In this document: one piece after another, positions 6,076 through 46,900 of the stretch | How the letters are laid out: every line of letters begins with the position of its first letter | Numbering within the stretch: position 1 is the stretch's first letter | Notes under the pieces: generated by a model | The model's input: the letters and a program-made list of their open reading frames with translations, nothing else | Told to the model about the DNA's origin: nothing | Databases searched by the model: none | Program-made: the position numbers and the translations under genes | Source: Gammaproteobacteria bacterium | Lineage (GTDB): Bacteria; Pseudomonadota; Gammaproteobacteria; G965277405 | Length of the DNA stretch: 64,000 bases | Direction of reading: 5' to 3' | NCBI GenBank assembly: GCA_965277405.1 | Contig: OZ255726.1 | Location: 426,280-490,279 of the forward strand

Positions 6076-6091
6076 ACAGCAAACAACAGCG

Positions 6092-11922: not shown

Positions 11923-12948
11923 TTAGGACGGCCCAACCGACCGGCTGTAGGCAATGTAGTTTTCCATTGCCGCTTTTGCCGCACCGCTTGCCATGGTTTC
12001 GATTGCCAGCGCAACGCCATCTGCAATTGAAGCTGCGCGTCCTGCAACAAATAACGCTGCCCCAGCATTCAGTGCCAAAGTTGTACGTGCCGCCTGATGG
12101 GTCCCCATATAGCCGCCGTGAATCAAGCGTAATGATTCATCAGAATTAGCAACGCGAATAGCGCTGATTGCAAATTGCGGCAAGCCATATTCACGAGGAT
12201 CAATTACCATTGGGGTCGCCTTGCCATCTGCAATATACATGGCGTCAGTAGGCATATTGGAGCTTATCTCATCCATTCCATCTTGCGAGTGTACCACTAA
12301 TGCCCGATGAAACTTAAGGTCAATCAGTGCTTGCGCATATGGTTCCAGCCAATGTTTGCTAAACACGCCAAGCAAGGTGTTTTTTGCACCAACTGGATTC
12401 AGCAAGGGTCCAAGTAAATTAAATATCGTGCGGATTCCAAGCGCCTGGCGCATTTTCAAAAAATTTTTCATCATCGGGTGGTGATTTGGCGCAAAGAGGA
12501 AACCAAAACCGTTGCAGTCAATGCTGCGGGCAACATCAGCGTGACTCATTTGCATATTTACGCCAGCGTGGCGCAATAAGTCAGCAGCACCACTTGAACT
12601 CGATATTGCCCCAGCACCATGCTTTGCGACCTTGGCTCCTGCCGCGGCAGCGATAAATGCAGACCCGATAGAAACATTGAAGGTGCAGTTGCCATCGCCA
12701 CCAGTGCCAACAATGTCAAGCAGCTGCGCTGCAGGAATGTTTGGCAGTACTGCTTTTGCATGATGTCGCATATGCGTTGCTGCTGCATGCAATTCACTTG
12801 CTGTTTCGCCTTTGCAGCGCAGTGCCACAAGAAACCCTGCAGCTTGCATATCATTCCAAGTACCATCCAACATCGCTGCAAACGACGCGTCCACCTCTGC
12901 TGTGGCAAGATCATGCCCTTCAATGATTTTTTCAAGCGTGGATATCAT
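11923..12948 (-). CDS. trpD: Anthranilate phosphoribosyltransferase
   Basis: 341 aa; DIVGTGGDG, KHGAGAISSSSGAADLL motifs. Confidence 0.85.
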   Translation of the reverse strand: MISTLEKIIEGHDLATAEVDASFAAMLDGTWNDMQAAGFLVALRCKGETASELHAAATHMRHHAKAVLPNIPAAQLLDIVGTGGDGNCTFNVSIGSAFIAAAAGAKVAKHGAGAISSSSGAADLLRHAGVNMQMSHADVARSIDCNGFGFLFAPNHHPMMKNFLKMRQALGIRTIFNLLGPLLNPVGAKNTLLGVFSKHWLEPYAQALIDLKFHRALVVHSQDGMDEISSNMPTDAMYIADGKATPMVIDPREYGLPQFAISAIRVANSDESLRLIHGGYMGTHQAARTTLALNAGAALFVAGRAASIADGVALAIETMASGAAKAAMENYIAYSRSVGPS

Positions 12949-12952
12949 AGTT

Positions 12953-14855: not shown

Positions 14856-14988
14856 CAGCAGTCCTCAGATTGCTTAGCAATCAATGCAAAGCGCATCTAT
14901 AAGCAAGCAAATTCGTTGAGTACAGCAAGTAGCGGTTACGCCATGATATGCATTAATCCAATTGTGATGACCGTTTGCAGATACATAG

Positions 14989-15272
14989 GGAAGCTCTGAT
15001 TAAGTCCATGATGGGCGAGACGGAGAAAAAACGCTGATGATAACTAGACGCAGTGGGCAGATAATACTGGTGGTATTATCAAGTACTGCAACGACGTTAG
15101 CGCAGCGTTTTTTCCCGTCCTTCTGTTGAATATACTTTGGGTTTGCTGCAGCGGTACTTGCTGTGTTGCATCCCTTGGCGTATATGCTACGGCATACGCC
15201 TGCGGAATGCGCCTTGCAATCATCAGCAATTGCAGGCAAACTCGCTCCATCAGCGAGTTAATCAGAGGTTCC
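14989..15272. mobile_element. MITE-like element (IS5-family derived), near-complete copy
   Basis: GGAAGCTCTGATTAAGTCC...GAGTTAATCAGAGGTTCC; reverse orientation relative to copy at 524. Confidence 0.7.
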
Positions 15273-17142: not shown

Positions 17143-17423
17143 GGAACCTCTAATTAAGTCGCTGATGGAGCGAGTTTGATGGCAATTGCTGATGATTGCA
17201 AGGCGCATTCCGCAGGCGCATGCTGTAGCATATACGCCAAGGGATGCAACACAGCAAGTACCGCTACCATCAAACCCAAAGTATATTCAACAGAAGGACG
17301 GGAAAAACGCTGCGCTCACGTCGTTGCACTTGATAATACCACCAGTATTATCTGCGCACTGCGTCTAGTTATCATCAGCGTTTTTTCTCCGTCTCGCCCA
17401 TCATGGACTTAATCAGAGCTTCC
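17143..17423. mobile_element. MITE-like element (IS5-family derived), complete copy with CTAA flanks
   Basis: GGAACCTCTAATTAAGTC...GGACTTAATCAGAGCTTCC; CTAA at 17139-17142 and 17424-17427. Confidence 0.7.
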
Positions 17424-17427
17424 CTAA

Positions 17428-18636
17428 GGAAGCTCTGATTAAGTCCCAAACAACAGCAATATCAGCTACAAAGATATACAATGGTGAATCTATTTGAATA
17501 TTTGAATAAGCGGATAATCTTATGAAACAAACAACTTTTGCCAGTGCTGCATACGACCACAAGAAAGTAACAACAAAACGTGAAAAATTCTTGCAGTCGA
17601 TGGACAAATTAGCTCCATGGCAACGGTTGTTAGCGTTAATAGAACCGCATTATCCCAAGAAAGGGAATGGCCGCCCACCAATTAATATGCAGACCATGTT
17701 ACGCGTTTATTGTTTACAGCAATGGTACAACTTATCAGACCCAGGGGTAGAAGAAGCACTATATGACATGGAAAGCATGCGGCGTTTTGCCCATATAGAG
17801 CTGATAGACGATGCCATCCCTGATGAAACTACCATCTTGAACTTCCGCAGGATCATAGAAAAGCATCAACTCAGCGTCAAGATACTTGCTGTGGTGAATG
17901 AGTATTGTATGGAAAATAATATAACAATCTCACAAGGGTCGATGGTTGATGCCACGATCATCCATGCACCATCATCTACGAAGAATAAAGAGAAAGCCCG
18001 TGATCCTGAAATGCATCAAACAAGGAAAGGCAATCAGTGGTATTTTGGCATGAAGATTCATATAGGAACTGACGCTAATAGCAATATGATTCATAGCGCG
18101 ACAGTGACAGCCGCGAATGAAGCTGACATCAATGAACTCCCAAAATTGCTGCGTGAAACAGATAAGGTTATCTTTGCCGATGCAGGATATACGAGCGACA
18201 GTTATAAACGCGGCTCGCGTCATCTTGGGATAGATTGGCGTGTGAATGATAAACGCAAGCCAAAGCAGCAAATGAGCACCTCGCAGCGCAAACGCAATAG
18301 ACAGAACTCTAAGGTGCGCGCCCGGATTGAGCACTGTTTTCGGGTAATCAAATGTCAGTTTGGTTATAAGAAAGCTCGCTACAAAGGACTAGAAAAGAAC
18401 CGAGTACAAGTATTTTCTTTGCTTGCATTGACGAACTTATACATGCTTCGAGGACGACTAACAGGATAGAACCGCCAAAAATTCAAGAAAAACAGTAAAA
18501 AACAGTAAAAAACAGTAAAACAGCAACACGAAGATCAGCGAAATGATCAAATATTGACCATTGAAAATTATTGCTATTATTTTTTTGGAGTATATGCGAG
18601 TTATTGGAGTATATGAGCGTCTTAATCAGAGCTTCC
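17428..18636 (+). mobile_element. IS5-family insertion sequence (1209 bp) with perfect 16-bp TIRs and 4-bp CTAA flanks
   Basis: Left end GGAAGCTCTGATTAAG at 17428; right end CTTAATCAGAGCTTCC ending 18636; CTAA at 17424-17427 and 18637-18640; single transposase ORF inside. Confidence 0.8.
17522..18469 (+). CDS. IS5-family DDE transposase
   Basis: 315 aa; close resemblance to IS5 transposase (DPEMHQTRKGNQWYFGMKIHIGTD, FADAGY, VRARIEHCFRVIKCQFGYKKARYKGL). Confidence 0.9.
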   Translation: MKQTTFASAAYDHKKVTTKREKFLQSMDKLAPWQRLLALIEPHYPKKGNGRPPINMQTMLRVYCLQQWYNLSDPGVEEALYDMESMRRFAHIELIDDAIPDETTILNFRRIIEKHQLSVKILAVVNEYCMENNITISQGSMVDATIIHAPSSTKNKEKARDPEMHQTRKGNQWYFGMKIHIGTDANSNMIHSATVTAANEADINELPKLLRETDKVIFADAGYTSDSYKRGSRHLGIDWRVNDKRKPKQQMSTSQRKRNRQNSKVRARIEHCFRVIKCQFGYKKARYKGLEKNRVQVFSLLALTNLYMLRGRLTG

Positions 18637-19226: not shown

Positions 19227-19299
19227 CCATCCAGCATCGATGCGAATCACTGCATGATGGCGTTCTCTGCAAATTTATTGCGAAGCTGCAGACCCTTAG

Positions 19300-19584
19300 G
19301 GAAGCTCTGATTAAGTCGCTGATGGAGCGAGGTTGCCTGCAATTGCTGATGATTGCAAGGCGCAAACCGCTAAGCGCATGCCGTAGCATATACGCCAAGG
19401 GATGCAACACAGCAAGTACCGCTTGTAGGCAAACCATCATATATTCAATAGAAGGACGGGAAAAAACGCTGCGCTAACGTCGTTGCAGCACTTGATAATA
19501 CCACCAGTATTATCAAGTGCTGCGCCTAGTTATCATCAGTGTTTTTTCTCCGTCTCGCCCATCATGGACTTAATCAGAGCTTCC
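19300..19584. mobile_element. MITE-like element (IS5-family derived), complete copy with TTAG target duplication
   Basis: GGAAGCTCTGATTAAGTCGCTGATGGAGCGAG...GGACTTAATCAGAGCTTCC flanked by TTAG at 19296-19299 and 19585-19588. Confidence 0.75.
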
Positions 19585-19612
19585 TTAGACAATAGCGTAT
19601 TCAAACTCGCGG

Positions 19613-23624: not shown

Positions 23625-23916
23625 GGAAGCTCTGATTAACTCGCTGATGGAGCGAGTTTGATGGCAATTGCAGATGATTGCAAGGCGCAAACCGCTGAGT
23701 GCATGCCGTAGCATATACGCCAAGGGATGTAACACAGCAAGTACCGCTGCCGCAAACCCAAAGTATATGTCAACTCAACGACGGGAAAAACGCTGCGCTA
23801 ACGTCGTTGCAGCACTTGGCAATACCCCCAGACCCACCAGTGTTAGCTGCGCGCTGCGCTTAAATTTCATCAGCGTTTCTTCTCCGTCTCGCCCGTCATG
23901 GACTTAATCAGAGACT
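23625..23916. mobile_element. MITE-like element, copy beginning immediately after hisD stop codon
   Basis: hisD TAA at 23622-23624 directly followed by GGAAGCTCTGATTAACTC; distal end degenerate (GGACTTAATCAGAGAC). Confidence 0.7.
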
Positions 23917-26539: not shown

Positions 26540-28681
26540 ATGACCGCTTTTGCGCAAACTGCAACGTCTTTAGACGCCGAGATCAATCAAGACGATTTGA
26601 CCGGCAAACACAGATCTTCTCCTTGGTTAAATCGTGTGGTTTTTATTATTGCGGTTTCGCTTGCGGTCGCTCATATATACATCAACACCTTAGGAACCCT
26701 TCCTGAACTTTGGGTTTCTGCGTTCCATTTTGCTGGATTCGGTGCTTTGTGCGCGCTGATGATTCCAGCCACACCAAAATGGCGCGACAGTAAAATAGCC
26801 TTAATCTGTGATTCCTTGGTGGTGATCGCACTCATTAGTATGGTGCTGTATATTATTTTTTTTGAAGACGCGCTGTATGCCCGCGGGGTGATTTTTAATA
26901 CAGGCGATTGGATCGTTTCTGCTGTTGCTGTTTTACTCGCGCTCGAATTCGTGCGGCGTACCAGCGGCTGGTTTATTCCACTTTTAATTATCGTTGCGCT
27001 GACGTACGTTGTGCTCTGGGGAAAATGGATCGACGGCGCATTCTCTTTTGCAGGGTTAAGCGTTGAAACCCTTTTATACCGCAGCTTTTTTGGTAGCGAC
27101 GGGATGTTCGGCCCAATCTCACGAATTTCATGGAGTTTCGTCTTCATGTTTATTCTATTCGGTGCATTTTTAGTTAAATCTGGTGCTGGAGAATTTATCA
27201 TTGCGCTGTCTCGTTCGCTTGCCAGCAAAATGATTGGCGGGCCGGGGTTTGTAGCGGTGCTAGGTTCAGGGCTAATGGGTTCCGTATCAGGTTCTGCTGT
27301 TGCCAATACCGTATCTACTGGAGTTATTACCATTCCGTTGATGCGTAAGGCTGGCTTTCCAGCCCGTTTTGCCGCAGGTATTGAAGCAGCCGCGTCAACT
27401 GGTGGGCAATTAATGCCTCCCGTGATGGGAGCTGGTGCATTTATTATGTCCTCTTATACCCAAGTATCTTATGTCACCATTATCAGTGTTGCCACCATTC
27501 CCGCTGTATTGTATTTTCTGTCTGTCGGCTTTTTTGTCCGAGTTGAAGCAAAACGCAGCAAAATAATTGCTAGCGACGACGATGACGTCAATATTTCTCG
27601 AGTTTTTAAAGAAGGTTGGCACCACATTGTTGCCTTTGTTGTTTTGGTTACTTTACTCATTAAAGGCTTCACTCCAACCTATGCAGCAGGGATAAGTATC
27701 CTCGCGGTAATCGCTGCATCTTGGCTTGCCAAAGGGCATAGAATGGGAGTGGCAGCTATTCTTGATGCCATGGCTCAAGGAGCTAAGAACATGTCGACGA
27801 CAGCCGTGCTGTTAGTCGGCATAGGTTTGGTTGTCAACGTCATCAGCACCACAGGTATAGGCAATACCTTTTCGTTGCTGATTAGCGACTGGGCTGGGGG
27901 CAGCCTCTTCTTCACTATTGTGTTAGTGGCTATTGCCTCGCTTATTTTAGGGATGGGACTACCCGTCACCGCCTCTTATATCGTATTAGCCACCTTATCA
28001 GCTCCTGCTTTATTCAACCTCATCGCTACAAGTCAATTACTAGAAATGATAGCATCTGGCACGTTACCGCAAGCAGCACATGCGGTATTTATGCTGGTAG
28101 ACCCTGCTGCTATCACCGCATTAGCTCAGAGCATGCCGATGGAACAAGCAACAGCTTTACTCGCGCAAGTACCTAGTGACTTTATAGGTATGCTGATAGA
28201 TCAAGCATTAGGTACGCAAACCATCGCTATGATTCTAGTAACTGCGCACATGATTATATTTTGGTTGTCGCAAGACAGTAACGTTACTCCACCAGTTTGC
28301 TTAACCGCCTTTGCTGCTGCTGCCATCGCCAAAACCCCACCAATGAGAACAGGATTAACAGCTTGGAAATTAGCAAAGGGGCTGTATATCGTCCCACTAC
28401 TAATGGCGTATACCCCTTTAATTGGTGGTGACGCCGCAACACTGTTGCGCCTCACCTTTTTTTTGATCTTTGGGATGTATGCTTTAGTTGCAGCAATGGA
28501 AGGTTATTTAGAAGACAAACTGACCATTGCTTCACGCGTATTGGTGCTTATCGCCGCAGCCATGATGCTGTGGCCAGAGCTAGAACTTTGGATTCAATGC
28601 ATTGGACTAGCGATATTCTTGACCTTATTCATTATCGGCTACAAGAAATATCCAAAAACGATGCAAGTTATAGCAACCTAG
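26540..28681 (+). CDS. TRAP transporter fused permease (TAXI-associated)
   Basis: 713 aa polytopic membrane protein immediately downstream of TAXI receptor. Confidence 0.8.
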   Translation: MTAFAQTATSLDAEINQDDLTGKHRSSPWLNRVVFIIAVSLAVAHIYINTLGTLPELWVSAFHFAGFGALCALMIPATPKWRDSKIALICDSLVVIALISMVLYIIFFEDALYARGVIFNTGDWIVSAVAVLLALEFVRRTSGWFIPLLIIVALTYVVLWGKWIDGAFSFAGLSVETLLYRSFFGSDGMFGPISRISWSFVFMFILFGAFLVKSGAGEFIIALSRSLASKMIGGPGFVAVLGSGLMGSVSGSAVANTVSTGVITIPLMRKAGFPARFAAGIEAAASTGGQLMPPVMGAGAFIMSSYTQVSYVTIISVATIPAVLYFLSVGFFVRVEAKRSKIIASDDDDVNISRVFKEGWHHIVAFVVLVTLLIKGFTPTYAAGISILAVIAASWLAKGHRMGVAAILDAMAQGAKNMSTTAVLLVGIGLVVNVISTTGIGNTFSLLISDWAGGSLFFTIVLVAIASLILGMGLPVTASYIVLATLSAPALFNLIATSQLLEMIASGTLPQAAHAVFMLVDPAAITALAQSMPMEQATALLAQVPSDFIGMLIDQALGTQTIAMILVTAHMIIFWLSQDSNVTPPVCLTAFAAAAIAKTPPMRTGLTAWKLAKGLYIVPLLMAYTPLIGGDAATLLRLTFFLIFGMYALVAAMEGYLEDKLTIASRVLVLIAAAMMLWPELELWIQCIGLAIFLTLFIIGYKKYPKTMQVIAT

Positions 28682-28905
28682 TTTTCGCATACAATCCTTG
28701 GTAACATAGACCGCGGCTTGCAATTGTTTTGCAATCGTTTTGCAATCGTTAGTGCGGCACATTATGTTTTGCGGCGAGTAAGCGCAGCTGTCGCTATCCT
28801 TGTCGCTATCCTTGAGGAGGAACAATATTGCATACAAAAAAACCTTGGCGTTTTTCTGTAAGTAGCTATAATAGCTACCTTAACTTTAATTTCATAGGTA
28901 TGAAC

Positions 28906-29193
28906 ATGAAGACTATCTCATCAAGAGATGCCCAAAACGCATTCGGTCACTTTCTGGATACAGTACAGCGTGAGCCAGTAATCGTGACTAAAAGGAACCG
29001 CCCTGTTGGAGTTATGTTGTCTATGGAAAACCTGCCAGCAATCTTTGAGCTTGCTGATAGTTTGAGAGAGACCATCAAAGCTGGTGTAAAGTCTGGGCTG
29101 GCAGATGCCAAAGCTGGCAAAGGCACAGCGCTTACCGCTGATTACATTGCTGATTTAAAGCAGGAGTTGCAAGCGAGAATAAATACCAGATAA
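28906..29193 (+). CDS. Type II antitoxin, Phd/YefM-like N-terminus with ParD-like C-terminal tail
   Basis: MKTISSRDAQNAFGHFLDTVQREPVIVTKRNRPVGVMLSMENL; start chosen at ATG 28906 (AGGT 6 nt upstream); alternative TTG at 28828 behind GAGGAGG noted. Confidence 0.75.
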   Translation: MKTISSRDAQNAFGHFLDTVQREPVIVTKRNRPVGVMLSMENLPAIFELADSLRETIKAGVKSGLADAKAGKGTALTADYIADLKQELQARINTR

Positions 29194-29202
29194 AAAGAAC
29201 GA

Positions 29203-29520
29203 ATGCAGCATTATCGTATCCAAATTATGCCTACTGCCAGCAAAGGGTTACTTGAAATTGGTGAGTATATTGCTGTGGATAACCCTGTCAGGGCGGTAAC
29301 GTTTGTTGTCGAAATAACCAATTCACTGCAAAAAACTCTATCGTTGTTTCCTCTTTCAGGAAAAGTTGCCGCAGACTTGGAAATGGATGAAGAAATTAGA
29401 ATATTGCCTCACGGTAATTACATTAGCTATTATCGTGTTGTAGCGCACAAACAGCTGGTAGAAGTCTTGTATGTGTTTAATGCCAGTCGTGATATTCAAG
29501 CGCTTATGACACAACTATAG
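29203..29520 (+). CDS. Type II toxin, RelE/ParE family
   Basis: 105 aa; typical RelE/ParE size and pattern (YRIQI...EEIRILPHGNYISYYRVVAHKQLVEVLYVFNASRD), 9 nt downstream of antitoxin. Confidence 0.8.
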   Translation: MQHYRIQIMPTASKGLLEIGEYIAVDNPVRAVTFVVEITNSLQKTLSLFPLSGKVAADLEMDEEIRILPHGNYISYYRVVAHKQLVEVLYVFNASRDIQALMTQL

Positions 29521-29814
29521 GCATAATCCCTTAAAATTAGCATGAGTTAAAAGCACAATATTGTTACAATCTGCATAGAAGAATTTGCATAAAAATCAAA
29601 ATTCACGGATTCACAAATTATTATAATACTCAAACTACATGCAGAGGGAGTGTCAGTTGCTGATCTGTCGATAACACGGCATAAGGCAATACGGTATATA
29701 AATAGCGTTCAAAATATGCTGGTTGGGATATTTCGTTCTTACAGGAGTTACAGGAACTGCGAGCTGAAAATTGACAACACAACAGATGTATGCTGAAAAG
29801 TTCTTGATTGCTGC

Positions 29815-29888
29815 AATACGGCATGCGCCTTGCAATCATCAGCAATTGCAGGCAAACTCGCTCCATCAGCGAGTTAATCAGAGCTTCC
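29815..29888. mobile_element. MITE-like element, terminal fragment
   Basis: GCGCCTTGCAATCATCAGCAATTGCAGGCAAACTCGCTCCATCAGCGAGTTAATCAGAGCTTCC, about 70 bp downstream of hsdR 3' end. Confidence 0.55.
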
Positions 29889-29960
29889 ATAGCTTAATTT
29901 TAAACAAATATACAATAATCACCCCGCACTTTTATGGTTGAGTTAATTTTTAAGCAATTC

Positions 29961-32816
29961 CTAGCCACCCATTCCATTGATAAAAGTCTCTACAAAATTT
30001 ACTGTTTTATTTAAAATCCTATCTCCAACAGCTTTACGGTTTAAAATATTAGGCTTAACACCTTCTATTAAATCTAATAAGTCATCACGTAATGGCTCTC
30101 TTTCTGCATACAGATAATCTTCAATGAGCTTTTGTGTTTTTTCTGATGATAAATTTTCTTCTTTTACAAATACTGCAAATGCCTTTTGCTGTTCTTCTGC
30201 CCAGAATTTATCAAACTCTTGTGGTATAGTTGCAGAATCTGCTATCGCAGGTAAATTATCTTCTATAAACTTTTCTATCAACTCTCTTTTACTTCTTAAA
30301 TTAGCTTCTCCAGTTAATAAATCTACAACCTCTTTACGCTTTGCTTCTCGTTCTGATTTTTTAACATCTTTTAAAGTTGCCAATAGTTTTAAAATATATG
30401 TAACATTAATTTCGTCTCTATGAATCAATTCTAATTCAAAATCTACATCATCGAGTATAGACACTTTTTCTTTGGCAGTATCGAGTTTTGTCTTTTGCCA
30501 TAAATCCAGATACTTGCTGCTGTAATCGTTAAACAACTGCTCTTGCATTGCCAAATTTTCCCAATTGAAATCAGCAAAAGTTGTCATTACGTTTTTTATA
30601 CGCATCAGCTCTCTAAAAGCTCGGATAAATTCTAATTCGTCTGCTTCACTCAGCAAATCATCAACACTATTTACAGTTGGTGCTATTTTTAATAAGTTTA
30701 CAAACGCCTCATTGAATTTTTGCGTATATTCTTCTTGCGGCTTCATTATAACAACATCTATAGCTTCTTTGTTACCAAAGAGTGTTATCGCTTGATCTGT
30801 CGCTTTTTTAAGATTGCGAAACACTACGATATTACCTTGAGATTTCTGCTCGTTGACAATTCTATTTGTCCGTGAGTACGCTTGTATTAAACCGTGATAT
30901 TTTAAATTTTTATCTACGTATAAGGTGTTTAATGACGGACTGTCGAAACCTGTTAAGAACATATTTACCACTAATAAAATATCTATTTTTTGCTCTTTTA
31001 CTTTCTTCGATATATCGTTGTAATAATTATAAAATGATTGGCTATCTTTTGTTGAAAAATTAGAGCCAAACATTTCGTTATAATGCCCTATATAACTGGC
31101 TAACTTATCTCTTTTATGTATATTTAAACCGTATAAGGCTGGCGATTCTGCTACTACCGATACCTCTTCTGGAATATATCCGTTGGCATCTGCATCTTCT
31201 TCGTTGGCTACATAACTAAATATGGTTGCTATTGTTAGATTGTGTGTGCCTTCTTCTTTTTTACGCTGTAGAATATCATAATAATTTACCAACATATCTG
31301 TACCACCGACACAAAACATTGCTGTAAATTCTCTGTTATGCGTTTTGCGGTTGTGATTTGCAATAATATAATCTACTATCTTTTCTAAGCGCTTTGATGA
31401 TTCCATTAACTCTTTACGGTCTATGTCCTCTACTTCAATATCTATTGCTGTAGCAGATTTTTTTTGTTGGTATTTGCCGACATATTCTACTGCAAATTTT
31501 AGTACGTTTTCATCTTGTATAGCATCTGTAATAACGTATTTATGCAAGCAGTTGCCAAACAATTCTTTAGTAGTGCGTTTGCCTAATTCGTTTTTAACTG
31601 CATTGTCTGCAAATATTGGCGTTCCTGTAAAACCAAACATTTGGTAATTGTTAAAAAATTCTTTGATACGCCTATGTGTTTCCCCAAATTGACTGCGATG
31701 GCACTCATCAAAAATAAAGACAATACGCTCATCTTTTAGTTGTTCCATTTTAGCTAAATAGCTCTTGTTACTAATAGCTGTATTTAGCTTTTGAATGGTG
31801 GTTACAATAATTTTGGTGTCATCACTAAATTGTTTTACCAATGCTTTGGTATTGTCTGTACCATCTATACTACCCTTAGAGAAACTATTAAATTCTCTGG
31901 TAGTTTGGTAATCTAAATCTTTTCTATCAACCACAAATGCCACTTTTTGAATCTCTGGCATTTTCATAATAATTTGACTTGCCTTAAATGATGTTAGCGT
32001 TTTTCCTGAGCCTGTGGTATGCCATATATAACCGTTGTGTGTACTATTATTTACCTTGTCAATAATGCTTTCTACTGCATAGTATTGATACGGTCTAAGC
32101 ACCATTAATATTTTATGGGTTTCGTTTAACACAATGTACTTACATATCATTTTAGAGATATGACAAGGTTCTAAAAACTCATTTGCAAACCCATTGAGAA
32201 TATTAGTTACACGCTTGTTTTCTTTATTTGTCCAATAGAATGTCTGCTTAAAAGATTGACGCTTATTGTTTGCATAGTATTTGGTATTTACACCGTTGCT
32301 AATTACAAATATCTGTACATATTGAAACAAAGCCGATTTGGCTGCGAACGAATGGCTTTGATAACGGTTTATTTGCTTAAAAGCTTCTTTTATTTCCAAG
32401 CCTCTACGTTTTAATTCTATTTGCACTAGGGGTAGGCCATTTACTAATAAGCTAAGGTCGTAACGGTTTTTATAACTCCCCTCTATAGTTACTTGACTAG
32501 TAACTTGATATTGATTTTGACACCAATGCTCGGTATTTAGAAACTCAAAATATAAGTTATCGCCATTATCTCTGACAATATGTTGTTTTTCTCTCAGGGT
32601 TTTAGCTTTTTCAAATACAGAGCCTTTAGTTAGTATATTGAGTACACGGTCAAATTCTTTAGCAGTAAACATAATATTGTTATTATGTTTTTCTAACTGT
32701 GTTTTTAGGTTCGCTAATAAGGAGGCTTCATTGGGGATACTTACTTTGGTATAACCAATGTTTGTCAACTGTTGTATTAACTGTTTTTCTAATATTTGTT
32801 CTGTTTGTGTATTCAT
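29961..32816 (-). CDS. hsdR: Type I restriction enzyme R subunit
   Basis: 951 aa; helicase motifs (HTTGSGKT, FIFDECHRSQFG) and overall HsdR layout; last gene of RM operon. Confidence 0.9.
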   Translation of the reverse strand: MNTQTEQILEKQLIQQLTNIGYTKVSIPNEASLLANLKTQLEKHNNNIMFTAKEFDRVLNILTKGSVFEKAKTLREKQHIVRDNGDNLYFEFLNTEHWCQNQYQVTSQVTIEGSYKNRYDLSLLVNGLPLVQIELKRRGLEIKEAFKQINRYQSHSFAAKSALFQYVQIFVISNGVNTKYYANNKRQSFKQTFYWTNKENKRVTNILNGFANEFLEPCHISKMICKYIVLNETHKILMVLRPYQYYAVESIIDKVNNSTHNGYIWHTTGSGKTLTSFKASQIIMKMPEIQKVAFVVDRKDLDYQTTREFNSFSKGSIDGTDNTKALVKQFSDDTKIIVTTIQKLNTAISNKSYLAKMEQLKDERIVFIFDECHRSQFGETHRRIKEFFNNYQMFGFTGTPIFADNAVKNELGKRTTKELFGNCLHKYVITDAIQDENVLKFAVEYVGKYQQKKSATAIDIEVEDIDRKELMESSKRLEKIVDYIIANHNRKTHNREFTAMFCVGGTDMLVNYYDILQRKKEEGTHNLTIATIFSYVANEEDADANGYIPEEVSVVAESPALYGLNIHKRDKLASYIGHYNEMFGSNFSTKDSQSFYNYYNDISKKVKEQKIDILLVVNMFLTGFDSPSLNTLYVDKNLKYHGLIQAYSRTNRIVNEQKSQGNIVVFRNLKKATDQAITLFGNKEAIDVVIMKPQEEYTQKFNEAFVNLLKIAPTVNSVDDLLSEADELEFIRAFRELMRIKNVMTTFADFNWENLAMQEQLFNDYSSKYLDLWQKTKLDTAKEKVSILDDVDFELELIHRDEINVTYILKLLATLKDVKKSEREAKRKEVVDLLTGEANLRSKRELIEKFIEDNLPAIADSATIPQEFDKFWAEEQQKAFAVFVKEENLSSEKTQKLIEDYLYAEREPLRDDLLDLIEGVKPNILNRKAVGDRILNKTVNFVETFINGMGG

Positions 32817-32860
32817 TTGTTCTATTAAAATATGCCTAAGGAAAGATATCCTCTATTATT

Positions 32861-33765
32861 TTAATTTTCTGACCATAATGGATTTAATTCCCAATTATTT
32901 AGAAAACCTAATTTATATATAGGAACGTTTGGATTATTTCTAATAAGTTCAATAATTTTATCTTTGATATGAAGATCAGGAGCAACTTCGTTTGAAAGAT
33001 AAACTAATGTTGAAATAATTAAAAAAGGTTTCTTTTTTTGCACTTCAGTTATTGGTGAATTTAACCAATCATACATTGGGTTTATAATGTTATCAGTTGG
33101 TCTAATAGCCATACTTCTGCTCCAAAGTCTTGAATGGTGAGCAATAATATTTCTTACATAAACTATCGCCCCTAACCAACTTGAAAGTTCACTATGAAGG
33201 TGTAATCCCATTTCTTTCGCTATTTGCGTCTTTTCTGGAAGCTGGTGTTTAATGTTTTTGTATAATTTAGAAAGACTACCCATTGAGACAACCTCTAAAG
33301 TCTTCCAAGACTCAGCATCAATCTTAGGATACTTTCTTTTATGGTCTCTTATAAAAATTTCACTACTTCTATTAAATTCCTTATTCATGATTGCAACAGA
33401 AGATAAGTGATGGTTTGTATTTGTAAAAAATGAAACGTTTAAATGCCATAAAGCATCATATCGTAAAGACATATGATAAATCATTTTTGTTCTTAATGCT
33501 ATTTCTATTCTTTCTATAGCATCAAATAAGATTAGTTTTAAATGCCTATCAAAATTATAGCGCTCAATTACAGTTTCAAAATAAGTGTTTGGGTGAAATT
33601 TATGTTGTACAAAATCACATTGCATATCCCACCAATAGCTTTTAATCGATAATAACTTATTGTGGATAAAAAATGAGTTGCAGAAACCTCATCTTTAAAC
33701 AGCATATCTCTGTCCTTGAGTTGCTGTAATTGTTGTGCTATGCTAAGCGTTGGTTTAGAAGTCAT
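32861..33765 (-). pseudogene. Abi_2 (AbiD/AbiF-like) abortive-infection gene, interrupted by a 1-nt frameshift
   Basis: ORFs 33568..33765 and 32861..33625 overlap in different frames; N-terminal part ends ISYYRLKA, second part resumes YWWDMQ; shift maps to A4 tract (plus-strand T4 at 33640-33643). Confidence 0.65.
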
Positions 33766-33893
33766 AGCTTAAATAAAATGACCCGAGTGCAGTTCTTATG
33801 GTATGCAACTCGGGTTCTGTTACTACAAAGCTACAAACTTTATACCAATTTTGACGACTTTCTACCAATTTTTACGAATTTTTAACATTTTCA

Positions 33894-35414
33894 CTATACC
33901 AACATCTGTTGTAATAAGCCTTTTTTATAGAATTTTGTATGTTCTATTTTTTTATTGGTCAATTCTATTTTTTTATCTATTGATGATAGGAAATTGGCGA
34001 TTTTTTGTTGTTCTCTGGGTAGTGGAACATTAAGATTCAAAGAAGCAAGTTGTTTATTATATAAATGAACAACAGAATTGCCTTGTGCTAATTTAGCTAT
34101 ATCCATTTTTTTACTGTTATTCAATAAATAAGATAGGAATACACCATTTAGTTTAGATTTAATTATGTTCAAATCTCCTCCTAAAATCACACCCTTTTTC
34201 AAAACACAAGAAGCTGTGGCAATATCTAACCGTGTTTCACCTGAAGAAGGTATAATAACATCATTTTCTTCACTTAATACAGAGTCCCTTAAAGGAACAT
34301 TTGTTTTATAAATTATTGAATTAATTACTTCATTGTATGTCGTGTAAAGTTCTCCATAACGAATACATTCATTTACACCATCACTGACAATATCACTTTT
34401 TGAAACTCCTTTACCTTTTAAAAATTTCGCAATATTTCCCAACTTCTTCTCCTCCCATTCCCCTTCAAACTCATTCCCATTATCATCTTTAAACCTCAAC
34501 TCTTGTTTAAAGATTTTTTGCATTACCCCTTTTTTGTATTGCTCTAAAAGAGTTTTCTTTTTTTCTAAGGTTTTGACACGGTTATCTATGGCTGTTAGGA
34601 AATTGGCGATTTTTTGTTGTTCTTTTTTTTCGTTTGGAAAATAAACTTCCATTTGCCTTAGGTTGGTATTATATAGTCTTTTAATAATTCCACCATCAGA
34701 TGTTTGCCATCTTAGAGTTGAATAACAATAAAATAGAAAAGTATTTAGTATTTGTTGTTCATTATTTTCAAGCCAAACAATATTTGAATCCTGATAATAT
34801 GCATCCGAACCATCATATACTACTAATCTTCCAATAGTTCCAGATGCAGAAATAAGTATATCACCAATATTTGGAAACGAATACAGACTCTTATACTTTT
34901 TATATAAATCAATTGGAATATATGAATCAGAATCACTGCCAAATGTTCCAATTTTGTAAAAAGGGACAGAGTTATTTGACTCAGTCGTTGTTTGCTCTTT
35001 AAAAATCCTTTTACACATCAAAGGTCTTCCAATATTTCCTAATTTCTTCTCCTCCCATTCCCCTTTAAACTCAGGAAACCGCAATCGAGGAATATTCTTC
35101 TTTAAGGATATAGGAAAAGGAATTTTACACGTATTTATAATTTGTTTAAATGAGGTTGAAACCTCATTAATATCTATAATATCTACCTTGTACGGCAGCA
35201 AAGAATCATCTAAATCATCTCTTAAACTCGCCAATATCATTGGTGAAATAATAGTACTATGTTCCAAAGCAATATCCAAATCAGAATTGTATTTGGTTTG
35301 GTTTTTTGCCCTAGAGCCAAACACCCATACTTTACAATCTGTAGTAAGATGTTTTTGTAGAATATCTCTTATAATATAAAATTCCTTTGGGCTAATATCA
35401 AAATTAATCTTCAT
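33894..35414 (-). CDS. hsdS: Type I RM specificity subunit HsdS with in-frame N-terminal nucleotidyltransferase (MNT/HI0073-like) domain
   Basis: First ~105 aa: VWVFGSRAKNQTKYNSDLDIAL...YKVDIIDI (pol-beta NTase GSx10DxD); remainder two-TRD HsdS with duplicated EGEWEEKKLGNI and EQQKIANFL(T/S)(A/S)ID coiled-coil spacers; no stop or obvious internal start between modules. Confidence 0.8.
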   Translation of the reverse strand: MKINFDISPKEFYIIRDILQKHLTTDCKVWVFGSRAKNQTKYNSDLDIALEHSTIISPMILASLRDDLDDSLLPYKVDIIDINEVSTSFKQIINTCKIPFPISLKKNIPRLRFPEFKGEWEEKKLGNIGRPLMCKRIFKEQTTTESNNSVPFYKIGTFGSDSDSYIPIDLYKKYKSLYSFPNIGDILISASGTIGRLVVYDGSDAYYQDSNIVWLENNEQQILNTFLFYCYSTLRWQTSDGGIIKRLYNTNLRQMEVYFPNEKKEQQKIANFLTAIDNRVKTLEKKKTLLEQYKKGVMQKIFKQELRFKDDNGNEFEGEWEEKKLGNIAKFLKGKGVSKSDIVSDGVNECIRYGELYTTYNEVINSIIYKTNVPLRDSVLSEENDVIIPSSGETRLDIATASCVLKKGVILGGDLNIIKSKLNGVFLSYLLNNSKKMDIAKLAQGNSVVHLYNKQLASLNLNVPLPREQQKIANFLSSIDKKIELTNKKIEHTKFYKKGLLQQMLV

Positions 35415-35835
35415 AAAAAGTTTTTAGCTTTTGTAAAAAATATTCAGCCTCTGATAAAAAAGCAGGAATTTCTGCCACAATATCTATCGCAATATTTTCG
35501 TTATAACTATTAGAAGTTGTGTTGCTATTTTGCCTGTACACAGCCCATACATCCCAACTATGGAGTAAAATCCCTTTACTAAACCCCTCTCTTATAAGTT
35601 TTTGAAAAGAATATTCTTTAATTTCACTTGGGGTTTCTGGAATATTAGCAAGGTGTCTTCTCAGCATTTTGGTAGTTAATTCATAAGAATACTCAAAACG
35701 CTTAATACAAGCATCTCTAATATATTCACTATAACTATTTTTATTGCTGTGAAAATAAGATAACGCTTTTTTAAAACTTTCTAAAGCGTTTTCTAAGGAA
35801 CTTATATCTAATTTTTCATTAAAATTATTATTCAT
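35404..35835 (-). CDS. HI0074-type nucleotidyltransferase substrate-binding protein (HEPN-clan four-helix bundle)
   Basis: 143 aa; CIKRFEYSYELTTKMLRRHL resembles conserved core of NTase_sub_bind family; stop overlaps NTase-HsdS start by 11 nt; sits 4 nt after hsdM stop. Confidence 0.65.
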   Translation of the reverse strand: MNNNFNEKLDISSLENALESFKKALSYFHSNKNSYSEYIRDACIKRFEYSYELTTKMLRRHLANIPETPSEIKEYSFQKLIREGFSKGILLHSWDVWAVYRQNSNTTSNSYNENIAIDIVAEIPAFLSEAEYFLQKLKTFYED

Positions 35836-35838
35836 ATT

Positions 35839-37494
35839 CTAAAATGGTGTCTCAATACCTAATTCTTTACAAAAAGAAGCAATAATATCGTCTGTTTTCT
35901 TTAAATTTAAATCTAATATTTGTATTTCTTTAGCAACTACCTTAATATTTACTTGCTCTTCTTCTGCAGAAGTATCGACATAACGAGGTATATTAAGGTT
36001 GTAATCGTTCTCAGCTATTTCATCTAAGGAGGCTGTATAGCTGTATTTGTCTTCAATTTTACGCCCCCTATATGTAGTTATTAATTTATCTATATGAGCT
36101 TGTCTTAAAACATTTTGGGTTTTTACCTTTTCAAAATGTTTGCTCGCATCAATAAATAAAATATTTTTAGGGTTTTCTCTACATTTTTTAAATACCAAAA
36201 TACAAGTAGGGATGCCTGTACCATAAAATATATTGGCAGGTAAACCAATAACAGCATCTAAATAATTTTTTTCTTCAATTAAATATTTACGGATATGAGC
36301 TTCGGCACCACCTCTAAATAACGCCCCATGTGGCAATACTAATGCCATACTGCCGTTATCGTCTAAATGATATACCATATGCTGTACAAAAGCAAAATCT
36401 GCCTTATTCCTCGGTGCTAATTTACCGTATTGGCTAAACCTATCGTCACTCATAAAGAGTTGGCTAGCACTCCACTTTGCAGAAAATGGCGGATTGGCTA
36501 CAATAGCCTCAAAACGCAGGTCTATATGTTGTGGGTGTTCTAAGGTATCTTCTTGCTTAATATCAAATTTGCGATAATGTAAATCGTGTAATATCATATT
36601 CATACGTGCTAAGTTGTAGGTAGTACGGTTGAGTTCTTGGCCGTAAAAGTTGTTTACGTTATTATCTACTTCTTTGGCTACACGTAATAGTAATGAACCG
36701 CTGCCACAACTTGGGTCATATACCGATTTTAGTTTTTTTTTTCCTGTGGTTACCAATTTAGCCAATACCATGCTTACCTGTTGCGGTGTATAAAATTCGC
36801 CTGCTTTTTTACCTGCTCCACTGGCAAATTTGCCAATTAGATATTCATAGGCATCGCCCAATACATCTGATTCGGTTTGTTCTAATTTAAAATCAATTTT
36901 ACTTAAATGTGCGAGTACTTTAGCAATAATTTCATTACGCGCCGCTGGTGTTTTACCTAATTTGGTGGAGTTTAAATCCATATCCTCAAAGAGGTTGTCA
37001 AAATCTTCTTCACTATCCGTACCCATTGTACTGTTTTGGACGTTGATGAGGATTTTTTGTAAATCTTCTAGTATAAAATTATGCTTGGTATGGTAGGTTG
37101 CTGTCGTGTCTTTTGTTATATTATTACTTTCTTTAATACCTTCATTGTGATTGCCGCGTTTTGCGACAGCAGAAAATAATTCTGACGGTTTTAAGAAGTA
37201 TCCTAATCCCCCCCCTACTAAAGAGTTTTCGCTTATTGCTTTGATATATTTTTTTCCTGTTTCTGTATTTTCGTCTATAGCGGCAAACAAAAATGTATCG
37301 CCTCCTTCTTTAATAATTTTATTAGCATATATTTCCATTTTTTCGGATAAGTATTTATAGAAAATAAAGCCTAATATATAATCACGAAACTCATCTGCAT
37401 TCATTTTACCCCTAAGGGTATTGGCAATATTCCAAAGTTGTTGTTCTAATTGTTTTTTATAGTCTTCTGACATTGTGGGTCTCAATTGTTGCAA
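35839..37494 (-). CDS. hsdM: Type I RM N6-adenine DNA methyltransferase subunit
   Basis: 551 aa; catalytic NPPF motif (IVANPPFSAKW), AdoMet-binding region DPSCGSGSLL. Confidence 0.9.
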   Translation of the reverse strand: MQQLRPTMSEDYKKQLEQQLWNIANTLRGKMNADEFRDYILGFIFYKYLSEKMEIYANKIIKEGGDTFLFAAIDENTETGKKYIKAISENSLVGGGLGYFLKPSELFSAVAKRGNHNEGIKESNNITKDTTATYHTKHNFILEDLQKILINVQNSTMGTDSEEDFDNLFEDMDLNSTKLGKTPAARNEIIAKVLAHLSKIDFKLEQTESDVLGDAYEYLIGKFASGAGKKAGEFYTPQQVSMVLAKLVTTGKKKLKSVYDPSCGSGSLLLRVAKEVDNNVNNFYGQELNRTTYNLARMNMILHDLHYRKFDIKQEDTLEHPQHIDLRFEAIVANPPFSAKWSASQLFMSDDRFSQYGKLAPRNKADFAFVQHMVYHLDDNGSMALVLPHGALFRGGAEAHIRKYLIEEKNYLDAVIGLPANIFYGTGIPTCILVFKKCRENPKNILFIDASKHFEKVKTQNVLRQAHIDKLITTYRGRKIEDKYSYTASLDEIAENDYNLNIPRYVDTSAEEEQVNIKVVAKEIQILDLNLKKTDDIIASFCKELGIETPF

Positions 37495-37580
37495 TCATCA
37501 AAATATAAATCTTTAGGGTCAGTAGTTACGAACATATTATTTTGATTGATATGCCTTATCGGCTGTAACCATGCTCTTAA

Positions 37581-37869
37581 GGAAGCTCTGATGAAGCCCA
37601 TGATGGGCGAGACGGAGAAAAAACGCTGCTGATAACTAGCCGCAGTGCGCAGATAATACTGGTGGTCTTGTGGGTGCTGCCAAGTGCTGCAACGACGTTA
37701 GCGTAGTGTTTTTTCCCGTCCTGCTGTTGAATATACTTTGGGTTTGCGGCAGCGGTACTTGTGCTGTGCTGCATCCCTTGGCGTATATGCTACGGCATGC
37801 GGTTTGCGCCTTGCAATCATCAGTAATTGCCAGCAAACTCGCTCCATCAGCGAGTTAATCAGAGCTTCC
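37581..37869. mobile_element. MITE-like element, complete copy immediately upstream of the RM operon
   Basis: GGAAGCTCTGATGAAGCCC...GAGTTAATCAGAGCTTCC; followed by another TIR-like stub GGAATCTCTG. Confidence 0.7.
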
Positions 37870-37953
37870 CATGAGGAATCTCTGCGTAAAACCGTGCTTA
37901 GAATTTGATTGCAGCATAAACTTGAATGGCTGCTATACAACATGTTGTTGCTG

Positions 37954-39660: not shown

Positions 39661-39664
39661 CGAT

Positions 39665-39803
39665 TTGCGGCAATTGCGGTACTTCTGTGTAGCATCCTTT
39701 GGCGTATATGCTACGCCATGTGCTTAGCGGTTTGAGCCTGGCAATCATCAGCAATCGCAACAAGCTCACTCCAAATCGACTAAATTAAAGGTTCCTTAAA
39801 ATA
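39665..39803. mobile_element. MITE-like element, degenerate partial copy
   Basis: GCATCCTTTGGCGTATATGCTACG...GGCAATCATCAGCAATCGC resembles MITE core with substitutions. Confidence 0.4.
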
Positions 39804-40373: not shown

Positions 40374-40669
40374 GGAATCTCTGATTAACTCCATGATGGA
40401 TAAGACGGAGCAACAACGCTGACGATAACTGTGTTGTGCGCAGGTCACACTGGTGGGTCTTGTGGGTATTAGCAAGTGCTGCAACGACGTTAGTACCGCT
40501 TTTTTTCCGTATTAAGTTCAATAAACTTGTGGTTTGCGGCATTGCTTACGCTTGCTGTATTGCATCCGTTGGCGGATATGCTACGGCAGGCGCTTATGCG
40601 GTTTGCGCCTTGCAAATCATCAGCAATTGCCCGCAAACCCGTGGTATCAGCGAGTTAAGCTGCTGTTCC
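40374..40669. mobile_element. MITE-like element, diverged complete copy
   Basis: GGAATCTCTGATTAACTCC...GAGTTAAGCTGCTGTTCC with recognisable internal core. Confidence 0.55.
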
Positions 40670-43020: not shown

Positions 43021-43097
43021 TGGGGTGGATGATGGGACTTGAACCCACGACAACCGGAATCACAATCCGGGGCTCTACCAGCTGAGCTACACCCACC
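43021..43097 (-). tRNA. tRNA-His: tRNA-His (anticodon GTG) with encoded G-1 and CCA
   Basis: Minus-strand sequence GGTGGGTGTAGCTCAGCTGGTAGAGCCCCGGATTGTGATTCCGGTTGTCGTGGGTTCAAGTCCCATCATCCACCCCA folds as cloverleaf; anticodon loop TTGTGAT; G-1:C73 pair typical of tRNA-His. Confidence 0.85.
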
Positions 43098-46138: not shown

Positions 46139-46693
46139 TTAACCCCACGTAAATACCCGTGACGGTGTCACTGCATAGTCAAGACGAATATCCCATGGGC
46201 TTGGAGTAAACGTTGTGGAGTATTGACAGTCAAAGGCAATCGCGCAAAGTAATGGTCGCCGACTGCTAGCAAATGTTGTGTCATAATACCCGCCACCCAT
46301 GCCAAGGCGGTATCCTTGGGTGTTAAAACCCACGAGCGGGGTGAACACCCAGTCAAGCTGTGCTGGTTTAATAGCGGGATTGTTGGCGGTGCACTGAGGT
46401 TGGCGAATGCCAAACGGGCCTGTATCAAGTATTGAATGTTGGCTGTAGGAGACAAACGCGAGGTGACGGTCGTTGTTGACTACAGGTGCGTAAGTTTGGA
46501 TTGCCCGTTGCCAGAGGTGATCGATAATTGTTGTAGTATCGATTTCCTCACCAAATGAAAGGTAGACACCAACATGCAGCGGTTGGTGATCATCGATGAG
46601 TTGCAACACCGATCTGCATACTTGCACTGTATCGCTGCGACGTTGTGGGGTGGGGATTGCTTGACGTTGGCTGCGAATTGTCTTGCGCAACAT
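46139..46693 (-). CDS. ygfA: 5-formyltetrahydrofolate cyclo-ligase
   Basis: GMGGGYYD motif; start set to ATG 46693 (MLRKTIRS) so that CDS does not overlap the upstream 6S RNA candidate. Confidence 0.75.
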   Translation of the reverse strand: MLRKTIRSQRQAIPTPQRRSDTVQVCRSVLQLIDDHQPLHVGVYLSFGEEIDTTTIIDHLWQRAIQTYAPVVNNDRHLAFVSYSQHSILDTGPFGIRQPQCTANNPAIKPAQLDWVFTPLVGFNTQGYRLGMGGGYYDTTFASSRRPLLCAIAFDCQYSTTFTPSPWDIRLDYAVTPSRVFTWG

Positions 46694-46699
46694 GTTTAT

Positions 46700-46900
46700 A
46701 GCGGGGGATGGTGTGCCCACGTTACCGTCTCACAGTTGTTTCCTTGAACCGCGGCTCAAGGGTATGGCAACCAAGTGGTATGTTGGGATCGTAAGACGTA
46801 GTCACGATACACGCCCATACCGGAGAGTTACCATAATAGTTTTCTCATTGGCTCAGAAACATACTTTAATAACGAATAACCCAGGCACGCAATCAGTATA
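46700..46900 (-). ncRNA. ssrS: 6S RNA (SsrS) candidate; boundaries approximate
   Basis: Immediately upstream of and co-oriented with ygfA, the conserved position of ssrS in gammaproteobacteria; contains GUUUCUGAG near 5' region and hallmark hairpin CCCUUGAGCC-GC-GGUUCAAGG. Confidence 0.45.

Follow-up and report, generated by a model that had tools for sequence, protein, structure and literature searches.

We analysed a 64,000-nt stretch of a gammaproteobacterial contig (OZ255726.1 of assembly GCA_965277405.1, positions 426,280 to 490,279 of the forward strand), called here the window, and within it a block of low GC content (29892-37575) that carries a type I restriction–modification (R-M) operon with genes of toxin and antitoxin type embedded in it. 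The operon is read from the minus strand and comprises hsdM, a gene for a HEPN protein of the HI0074 family, hsdS fused at its 5' end to a nucleotidyltransferase domain of the MNT type (MNT::hsdS), abiD and hsdR (Table 1). Between the TRAP permease gene and the block lie a Phd/ParE pair, a degenerate insertion sequence (IS) remnant and a fragment of a miniature inverted-repeat transposable element (MITE), and a complete MITE separates the block from the MFS transporter gene. Gene identities rest on the listing of open reading frames (ORFs) and on Pfam, PADLOC and NCBIfam profile searches, and the related contigs and loci with which the window was compared are labelled L081 to L092. A sequence-only reading of this DNA had listed nothing but defence-type genes for the interval 28682-37870, a list that the ORF listing, Pfam and PADLOC bear out; taken together, the profiles confirm the R-M, AbiD, HEPN and nucleotidyltransferase::hsdS calls, including the frameshift in the Abi_2 gene.

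Table 1. Features of the window, with coordinates, strand and the evidence or remarks attached to each
Feature	Coordinates	Strand	Evidence or remarks
TRAP permease, left flank	26540-28681	+	
Phd/YefM-family antitoxin	28906-29193	+	Pfam PhdYeFM_antitox (PF02604) E=3e-11; NCBIfam phd_fam 38.3 bits vs cutoff 20.8
ParE/RelE-family toxin	29203-29520	+	Pfam ParE_toxin (PF05016) E=3.6e-9, 88/89 profile positions
Degenerate IS3-family orfA (HTH_Tnp_1) remnant, tentative	29587-29790	+	Three reading frames
MITE fragment, right-terminal ~73 nt	29816-29891	+	Element positions 222-294; same orientation as the full copy
Low-GC block: type I R-M cassette, very probably imported, plus ~60 nt of unassigned DNA at the right end	29892-37575		31.8% GC
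hsdR, EcoR124-type (type IC-like), 951 aa, intact	29961-32816	-	HSDR_N + SWI2_SNF2 + T1R_D3-like + EcoR124_C
abiD (Abi_2-family HEPN RNase), split	32861-33765 (33765-33568 + 33625-32861)	-	Pfam Abi_2 E=5e-44
Terminator-like hairpin and U-run between hsdS and abiD	33786-33830	-	RNA fold
MNT::hsdS fusion, 506 aa	33894-35414	-	Pfam Polbeta, NTP_transf_2, 2x Methylase_S
HI0074-family HEPN (HepT-like toxin homolog), 143 aa	35404-35835	-	Pfam NTase_sub_bind E=2e-25
hsdM, N6-adenine methyltransferase, intact	35839-37473 (longer ORF start 37494)	-	N6_Mtase E=7e-112 + HsdM_N
Complete MITE, ~296 bp	37576-37871	+	Terminal inverted repeats TAAGGAAGCTCTGAT...ATCAGAGCTTCC
MFS transporter, right flank	39660-37954	-	
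MITE sites in the window, left part	523-855, 5948-6098, 14986-15272, 17143-17428, 19299-19587, 23625-23913		
MITE sites in the window, right part	29816-29891, 37576-37871, 39664-39795, 40374-40658, 60376-60434		

The block stands out from its surroundings by composition. The flanks have a GC content of 44.7% (1-28681) and 45.2% (37872-64000), and the four large genes of the island have a GC content at third codon positions (GC3) of 0.20-0.27, compared with 0.418 ± 0.044 (minimum 0.313) for 48 other genes of the window, in line with the AT-richness that the sequence-only reading had ascribed to the R-M genes. Gene by gene, the GC content is 29-34% in the cassette, 45% in phd and 40% in parE. 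The edges of the GC drop coincide exactly with MITE sequences on both sides: at the left border the foreign DNA directly abuts the MITE terminus, and at the right border ~62 nt of unassigned sequence precede the full MITE.

The cassette hsdM-HEPN-MNT::hsdS-hsdR is ~95% identical at the nucleotide level to copies on two contigs of Flavobacteriaceae type, L082 (1.17 Mb) and L083 (0.40 Mb), a value that covers hsdR, hsdM and HEPN as well as the MNT domain and the conserved stretches of hsdS; abiD and the target recognition domains (TRDs) of hsdS are the exceptions. Both contigs have ~32% GC, and the cassette there (31%) matches its surroundings. Homology extends over 29949-37514 in the case of L083 and 29938-37474 in that of L082, and 29894-29942 is an inverted match to an L082 segment located ~150 nt downstream of hsdR. 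In L082 the cassette is flanked by gldB and gldC, gliding-motility genes that are markers of the Bacteroidota. Every named protein among the best 120 HsdR homologs likewise belongs to the Flavobacteriaceae (for example Tenacibaculum, Polaribacter, Winogradskyella, Cellulophaga and Arenibacter), with 83-90% amino acid identity. The recipient is Marinomonas-like: for the TRAP permease, identity to Marinomonas spp. reaches no more than 83%, and the MFS protein shares 35-39% identity with proteins of Oceanospirillales, with no homolog above 39% outside its own genome. No relative with a conserved neighbourhood was found in the collections searched, in which the Marinomonas TRAP loci (74-83% amino acid identity) share only the TRAP gene pair, and exact look-ups of the TRAP permease and MNT::HsdS of the window returned no record.

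Synonymous divergence (dS) between the cassette genes and the flavobacterial copies is only 0.05-0.15, so that both the direction of the transfer, from Flavobacteriaceae to the gammaproteobacterium, and its recency are well supported. The block thus combines a deviating composition with near-identical copies in a distant lineage of matching composition, as an acquired island should, and the horizontal acquisition that had been suggested from the AT content is substantiated by these copies. A plasmid-borne copy was not found, since a megablast search of PLSDB gave only two matches, each of ~110 nt and 78% identity.

Two sibling contigs, L089 (290 kb) and L092 (44 kb, analysis ERZ26859071), have flanks ~99-99.9% identical to those of the window. 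The junction running from hsdR through the MITE fragment, the IS remnant, ParE and Phd to the TRAP gene is common to the window, L089 and L092, and the right junction, hsdM-MITE-MFS, is common to the window and L089; the cassette junctions are not an assembly artefact. As L082, L083 and L089 all derive from metagenome ERZ26859072, donor-type and recipient organisms co-occur.

The core of the cassette has all the parts of a type I R-M system. HsdR presents the N-terminal nuclease, the superfamily 2 (SF2) motor and the C-terminus typical of EcoR124, or type IC-like, enzymes (HSDR_N E=3e-39, SWI2_SNF2 E=1e-63, T1R_D3-like E=5e-57, EcoR124_C E=2e-64), and scores 1017 bits with the PADLOC profile REase_I and 481 bits with TIGR00348. 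HsdM has the N6_Mtase domain (TIGR00497, 441 bits), and HsdS has two Methylase_S stretches and two TRDs, the internal direct repeats of its gene (34398/34998 and 33973/34582) being the conserved regions. Compared with the L082 and L083 copies, HsdR shows 94-95% amino acid identity and a ratio of non-synonymous to synonymous substitution rates (dN/dS) of 0.18-0.19, and HsdM 92-94% identity and a dN/dS of 0.24-0.33. As far as can be read from their sequences, hsdR, hsdM and this allele of hsdS are intact and under purifying selection. The hairpin between hsdS and abiD (fold of 33775-33840 on the minus strand, -20 kcal/mol, z = -3.8) suggests that hsdM-HEPN-MNT::hsdS and abiD-hsdR are transcribed as separate units; a scan of the island for promoter and terminator consensus sequences gave counts at shuffle level, which is uninformative in DNA so rich in AT, and this hairpin alone held up when folded. 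L083 carries, between hsdM and the HEPN gene, a duplicate of 68 nt from the leader and 5' end of hsdM (7525-7592; 87% identity to window 37448-37514), and this duplication may be a recombination scar or a second promoter.

The specificity gene is unusual in that its product begins with a nucleotidyltransferase. The MNT part spans residues ~1-100, with the Polbeta/NTP_transf_2 domain at residues 15-93, and is followed at residues 105-506 by a full HsdS with two TRDs, which covers positions 5-411 of the 411 of the PADLOC profile Specificity_I. At the junction (...KIPFPISLKKNIPRLRFPEFKGEWEE...) there is no stop codon, nor a plausible start near the HsdS N-terminus, and HsdS would therefore be made here only as the fusion. 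The MNT domain carries the family motif GSx(9-13)DxD (GSRAKNQTKYNSDLDIAL, with GS...DLD intact), and its closest match in the PDB is HI0073 (E=2e-12), the Legionella MNT being matched as well. Its score with the NCBIfam equivalog MntA_antitoxin is 44.3 bits, for a cutoff of 60, and its dN/dS relative to the L082 and L083 copies is 0.42-0.57.

The fusion is conserved in L081-L088 and present in 8 of the 120 best HsdS homologs. A full-library search with the first 125 residues returned 375 representatives at E≤1e-10, and among the best 150 of these 50%-identity cluster representatives, 76 are at least 400 residues long with the MNT domain at the N-terminus. GS...DxD is kept in 75 of these 76 fusion-size relatives, and Polbeta together with Methylase_S was found in all ten that were sampled. 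A HEPN gene (NTase_sub_bind, 138-143 aa) lies immediately upstream of the fusion in 6/6 fused loci inspected, which include Methylococcales, an integrase-bearing island and others, and hsdM is found upstream wherever the locus is complete. The HEPN gene and the fusion overlap by 11-17 nt, with the exception of L081, where the gene calls are 2 nt apart. In both unfused loci (L090 and L091) the order is HEPN-MNT-hsdS and hsdS begins 2 nt past the MNT stop codon, so the loss of one stop codon would create the fusion.

In L084 (469-16582), the arrangement hsdM-(DUF2281)-HEPN-MNT::hsdS-hsdR is found on an integrase/DUF927 island, next to NACHT-like, RelA_SpoT and HNH genes; this island is one documented mobile vehicle for this type of cassette. 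Other fused loci carry an SMC_N/AAA_15 ATPase after hsdS (L088, 3885-5873) or a Bro-N protein between hsdM and HEPN (L086, 6757-7593), and the same embedded slots are thus reused by other genes. The literature search, which did not extend to subscription-only papers and does not prove absence, yielded no account of MNT fused to HsdS or of HEPN-MNT pairs inside type I operons; where a source names the fusion, it does so as 'restriction endonuclease subunit S'. The predicted antitoxin-HsdS fusion is, in our view, a genuine, widespread and apparently undescribed architecture.

The HEPN gene, whose ORF overlaps the start of MNT::hsdS by 11 nt, scores 69.3 bits with TIGR01987 (cutoff 55.8), and within the PDB it is closest to 1JOG (HI0074) and then to the HEPN toxin of L. 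pneumophila (8XDJ); PADLOC v2 has no model matching this HEPN partner. In characterised HepT/MntA pairs, the R and H of the RX4HXY motif are catalytic and its Tyr is AMPylated by MNT (PMC11586414). In the window the motif is degraded to SNTTSNSY (codons 35526-35503), with R104S and H109N and with Tyr111 kept, so that this copy lacks the catalytic RX4HXY of a type VII HEPN toxin. When nine sequences of the family, drawn from eight distinct loci, are aligned, RNxTSHxY appears in all but the window and L089, that is, in seven sequences representing six distinct loci, L091 being identical to L090. The window and L089 are the two assemblies that include the gene, and both read SNTTSNSY. The two codon changes, AGA>AGC and CAT>AAT, belong to a group of four non-synonymous changes that fall within nine codons, and by our own arithmetic both catalytic positions would be hit by chance with p ~0.005, given 11 amino acid differences in 143 residues. 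The dN/dS of the HEPN gene is 0.60-0.83, compared with the much lower value of hsdR, a ratio that derives from few counts (4 synonymous and 11-15 non-synonymous differences).

The second HEPN-type gene, abiD, is broken. Both of its pieces are matched by the PADLOC profile AbiD, and the break is a single missing G at ~33638, where the window reads AAAAGCTATTGG and L083, L089 and L092 read AAAAGGCTATT. The HEPN motif RNIIAH is retained downstream of the frameshift, and the window has no intact ORF that holds both the Abi_2 domain and RX4H. The deletion is seen in this assembly only. An intact ORF of 313 aa is present in L089 and L092, 53 codons are left in L083, and the gene is absent from L082.

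The sibling assemblies differ from the window in hsdS as well. Both TRDs (window 34010-35063, compared with L089 14600-15700 and L092 3-1001) are wholly different alleles, the central conserved region of hsdS is 100% identical, and the 5' region of abiD-hsdR is ~2% diverged, a pattern that is consistent with recent recombinational replacement of specificity within one population. The fragmented hsdS of L089 was considered as a case of pseudogenisation and downgraded, because L092 has the same TRD alleles in frame; many of the L089 indels are thus possibly consensus noise from mixed alleles.

Taken together, these findings indicate that the block 29892-37575 is very probably a type I (EcoR124/type IC-like) R-M operon that came recently from marine Flavobacteriaceae into a Marinomonas-like (Oceanospirillales) bacterium, and that its HEPN passengers are apparently disarmed in this copy. 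From established type I R-M biology, HsdM2-HsdS would methylate a bipartite target set by the two TRDs, and HsdR would be recruited (R2M2S) to cut unmodified DNA after ATP-driven translocation. In the donor lineage, by analogy, the two HEPN-superfamily RNase modules, AbiD and the HI0074/HepT-like toxin, may act as second-line suicide effectors, with the HI0073/MntA-like antitoxin, encoded just upstream of hsdS or fused to it, AMPylating the Tyr of the HEPN RX4HXY motif. The fusion would then make neutralisation of the toxin depend on how much specificity subunit is present or on whether it is intact, providing addiction, backup abortive infection or both. In the recipient the toxin layer appears dead, which probably leaves a plain type I R-M system whose passengers are disarmed. 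The spot is plastic and rich in mobile DNA, and the neighbouring Phd/ParE pair, IS-like remnant and MITE pieces are distinct components of it.

More tentatively, HEPN followed by MNT::HsdS might represent an undescribed 'hard-wired guardian' of type I R-M, in which a HepT-like RNase would be silenced only while the HsdS/R-M complex is present and unperturbed, a possibility raised by analogy that we hold to be less likely than its absence. Loss of the operon, or a phage anti-restriction attack, would release the toxin, and the outcome would be addiction together with a PrrC-like backup abortive infection.

Several observations weigh against these interpretations. An integrase was not found and no target duplication is evident at the insertion site; no tRNA adjoins the cassette, the nearest being a tRNA-His 5 kb off (43021-43096); and a search of the cassette for terminal repeats gave none above 8 nt, so that integrase, adjacent tRNA and terminal repeats, the usual signatures of integration, are all missing from what was found. 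The order HEPN then MNT is the reverse of the usual MNT-first dyad, and the function proposed for the MNT-HsdS fusion is drawn by analogy from HepT/MntA and PrrC/EcoprrI. Besides the small counts behind the HEPN ratio, the window, like its siblings, comes from metagenome assembly, and the abiD deletion affects a GG dinucleotide; as two sibling assemblies carry an intact gene, the deletion is possibly a consensus error.

The alternative that fares best, which we nevertheless consider unlikely, is that HEPN/MNT::HsdS still functions in the recipient, either as a non-catalytic toxin or regulator or as a two-part nucleotidyltransferase serving the R-M complex. The HEPN ORF is of full length, Tyr111 and GS...DLD of the MNT domain are intact, toxicity has been reported for HEPN proteins without Rx4-6H (PMC3710099), and HI0074 was originally regarded as the substrate-binding subunit of HI0073, as the NCBIfam name recalls. 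However, R and H are invariant in the seven other sequences and were lost only in the transferred copy, and their loss is accompanied by a dN/dS of 0.6-0.8 and a local cluster of substitutions, the pattern expected of relaxed constraint after inactivation.

A second alternative starts from the MITEs, which the sequence-only reading had placed on both sides of the interval. The fragment and the complete copy are indeed there, but they are weak evidence for mobilisation. MITE sequence occurs at 11 sites in the window (seven near-complete, four partial), or roughly one intergenic gap in five, in a family of ~290-bp elements with terminal inverted repeats (TIRs) of ~18 bp (TAAGGAAGCTCTGATTAA...TTAATCAGAGCTTCCTTA) and a mutual identity of 74-88%. 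With MITEs so frequent, bracketing alone says little on how the block arrived; the chance of a double bracketing, roughly estimated at ~3%, makes it only mildly unusual. A cassette caught between two directly oriented MITEs and moved by a transposase acting in trans, with later truncation of the left copy, would fit the abutment of foreign DNA on the left MITE terminus, its distance of 62 nt from the right one, the shared orientation of both pieces and the transposase-like remnant adjoining the truncated copy. Against it, with 11 sites in 64 kb two MITEs near any 8-kb block are not very unlikely, the left piece comprises only the terminal 73 nt and has no outer TIR, and no common target duplication was seen, so that the elements of a composite transposon are incomplete. 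In addition, this organism shows the cassette at one location only, and no MITE sequence was found in the L082 and L083 loci. As the way in which the cassette entered, a MITE-composite origin is possible but unsupported, and we judge it improbable. In L092, additional MITE copies are found precisely where synteny with the window breaks (left of ~24967), and the MITE family may drive rearrangements. The MITE-rich region that replaces the left part of the window in this contig also holds a gene with a SocA_Panacea domain, of antitoxin type (12919-13398), a further sign of a zone that is plastic and rich in defence and toxin–antitoxin (TA) genes.

The TA pair bears on a third proposal, that the whole of 28682-37870 is a single defence island gained in one acquisition. 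Phd and ParE have the features of a type II TA system, with the antitoxin gene first, 9 nt between the genes, and PF02604 and PF05016 both above cutoff. The longest phd ORF (28828-29193) has a TTG start, and the likely start is the ATG at 28906; in the sibling L092 a phd gene of 95 aa is called. Upstream of phd (28717-28815) there are short tandem repeats, TTGCAATxGTT three times and TGTCGCTATCCT twice, in an array that varies between strains, one 11-nt unit at 28728 being absent from L089; these repeats may be the operator or promoter region of the pair. Between the pair and the MITE fragment, a three-frame translation (KFTDSQIIIILKLHAEGVSVADL / HGIRQYGI / RSKYAGWDISFLQELQELRAEN) points tentatively to an IS remnant: the peptide stitched by hand matches HTH_Tnp_1 with E=4e-4 and 20.9 bits, below the 24.1-bit cutoff, and the unedited frames gave no Pfam match.

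In favour of a single island, all genes of the interval are of defence or addiction type, and the TA pair and the cassette are adjacent in three assemblies. The sequence-only reading stands, in its observations as in its interpretation, apart from the unity of the interval and the weight given to the MITE bracketing. The GC contents of phd and parE lie above those of the cassette genes, the IS-like remnant and the MITE fragment lie in between, the flavobacterial copies have no Phd/ParE, and homology to them stops within ~70 nt of hsdR. The imported unit is only 29892-37575, the Phd/ParE pair with its host-like GC is a module separate from the R-M block, and a joint acquisition is a still poorer explanation than the MITE composite. 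Finally, misjoining of a flavobacterial R-M segment into a Marinomonas-like contig, which the donor-type DNA in the same sample and the MITE repeats at both junctions (classic misjoin sites) might suggest, is very hard to credit, because the left junction is the same in three assemblies, one of them from a different analysis, the right junction recurs in L089, the cassette of the window differs by 5% from either flavobacterial copy and has derived changes of its own (R104S/H109N of HEPN also in L089), and the L082 and L083 loci, having no MITE, offer no shared repeat to cause a misjoin.

A few observations concern the wider window. The sign of the GC skew changes near 37-43 kb, with a cumulative minimum near 36-37 kb, and around 43 kb the prevailing gene orientation turns from minus to plus, a signature like that of an origin; rnpA/yidC/mnmE-like genes are found at 48-52 kb. 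A replication origin near the cassette was considered and rejected, as DnaA-box matches are at chance level (22 observed, 19 expected) and unclustered. A 6S RNA (46710-46890, minus strand; Rfam, 48.2 bits) overlaps by ~11 nt the 5' end of the 5-formyltetrahydrofolate cyclo-ligase gene (46139-46720), the position of a 6S RNA beside the cyclo-ligase gene being the classic ssrS-ygfA pairing. Together with the tRNA-His, on the minus strand, it is the sole Rfam or tRNA match in the window.

The acquisition of a defence island by horizontal transfer is routine in kind. The transfer of this R-M operon from Flavobacteriaceae would be a clean and datable case between phyla, with an unusually clear donor, in which a complete immune operon passed from Bacteroidota to Gammaproteobacteria, apparently within one community, with a dS of ~0.1 and a GC content not yet shifted toward that of the host. 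Near-identical cassettes lose the embedded RNase toxins in various ways (active-site substitutions, frameshift, deletion, absence) and keep the R-M core, an observation relevant to what suicide modules cost when a defence system moves into a new host. The antitoxin-HsdS fusion provides a directly testable model for the coupling of R-M to abortive-infection effectors. If HEPN and MNT::HsdS do act as a guardian, the loss of the catalytic R and H after transfer to a new phylum would be the footprint of toxicity.

The closest known systems to the core of the cassette are the type IC R-M systems EcoR124I and EcoprrI, with which it shares the three subunits, an HsdR with nuclease, SF2 motor and EcoR124_C, an N6_Mtase HsdM and an HsdS with two TRDs, as well as the split into hsdMS and hsdR transcription units. 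This likeness is known from sequence, and the cassette differs in the additional N-terminal nucleotidyltransferase of HsdS and in the HEPN gene and abiD embedded in the operon. The hsdS-hsdR slot, which abiD occupies here, is an insertion hotspot, used for example by DarTG2 in enteropathogenic Escherichia coli (EPEC) (PMC12255303), and Abi2/AbiD has been listed as 'embedded in R-M operons' (PMC3710099 Table 1). In contrast to these embedded modules, abiD is variably decayed among near-identical cassettes, being intact, frameshifted, truncated or absent.

The HEPN and MNT parts resemble the type VII HEPN-MNT systems, such as SO_3166/3165 of S. oneidensis, HepT/MntA of A. flos-aquae and the L. 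pneumophila HEPN-MNT pair, with HI0074/HI0073 as prototypes. In common are a HEPN protein of the HI0074 family, the RX4HXY of that family, the GS...DxD of MNT and adjacent overlapping ORFs (PDB 1JOG/1NO5 and 8XDJ/8XEH). The usual dyad has MNT 5' of HEPN (PMC3710099), whereas in the cassette HEPN comes first and MNT is fused to hsdS or lies 2 nt upstream of it, inside an R-M operon, and this is thus not a stand-alone two-gene dyad. In the window, moreover, the catalytic R and H are replaced, and the score with the MntA equivalog falls below its cutoff.

The organisation is also reminiscent of PrrC in the type IC locus of EcoprrI, where a HEPN-superfamily RNase is likewise encoded inside a type IC-like hsd operon, and where the toxin is silenced by the R-M complex and released upon attack (PMC3710099; PMC12707154). 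PrrC, however, is a large protein of ABC-ATPase::HEPN type that EcoprrI silences by binding it directly, whereas the HEPN protein of the cassette is small and of the HI0074/HepT type, and its silencing would presumably fall to an enzymatic domain, the MNT that is fused to HsdS.

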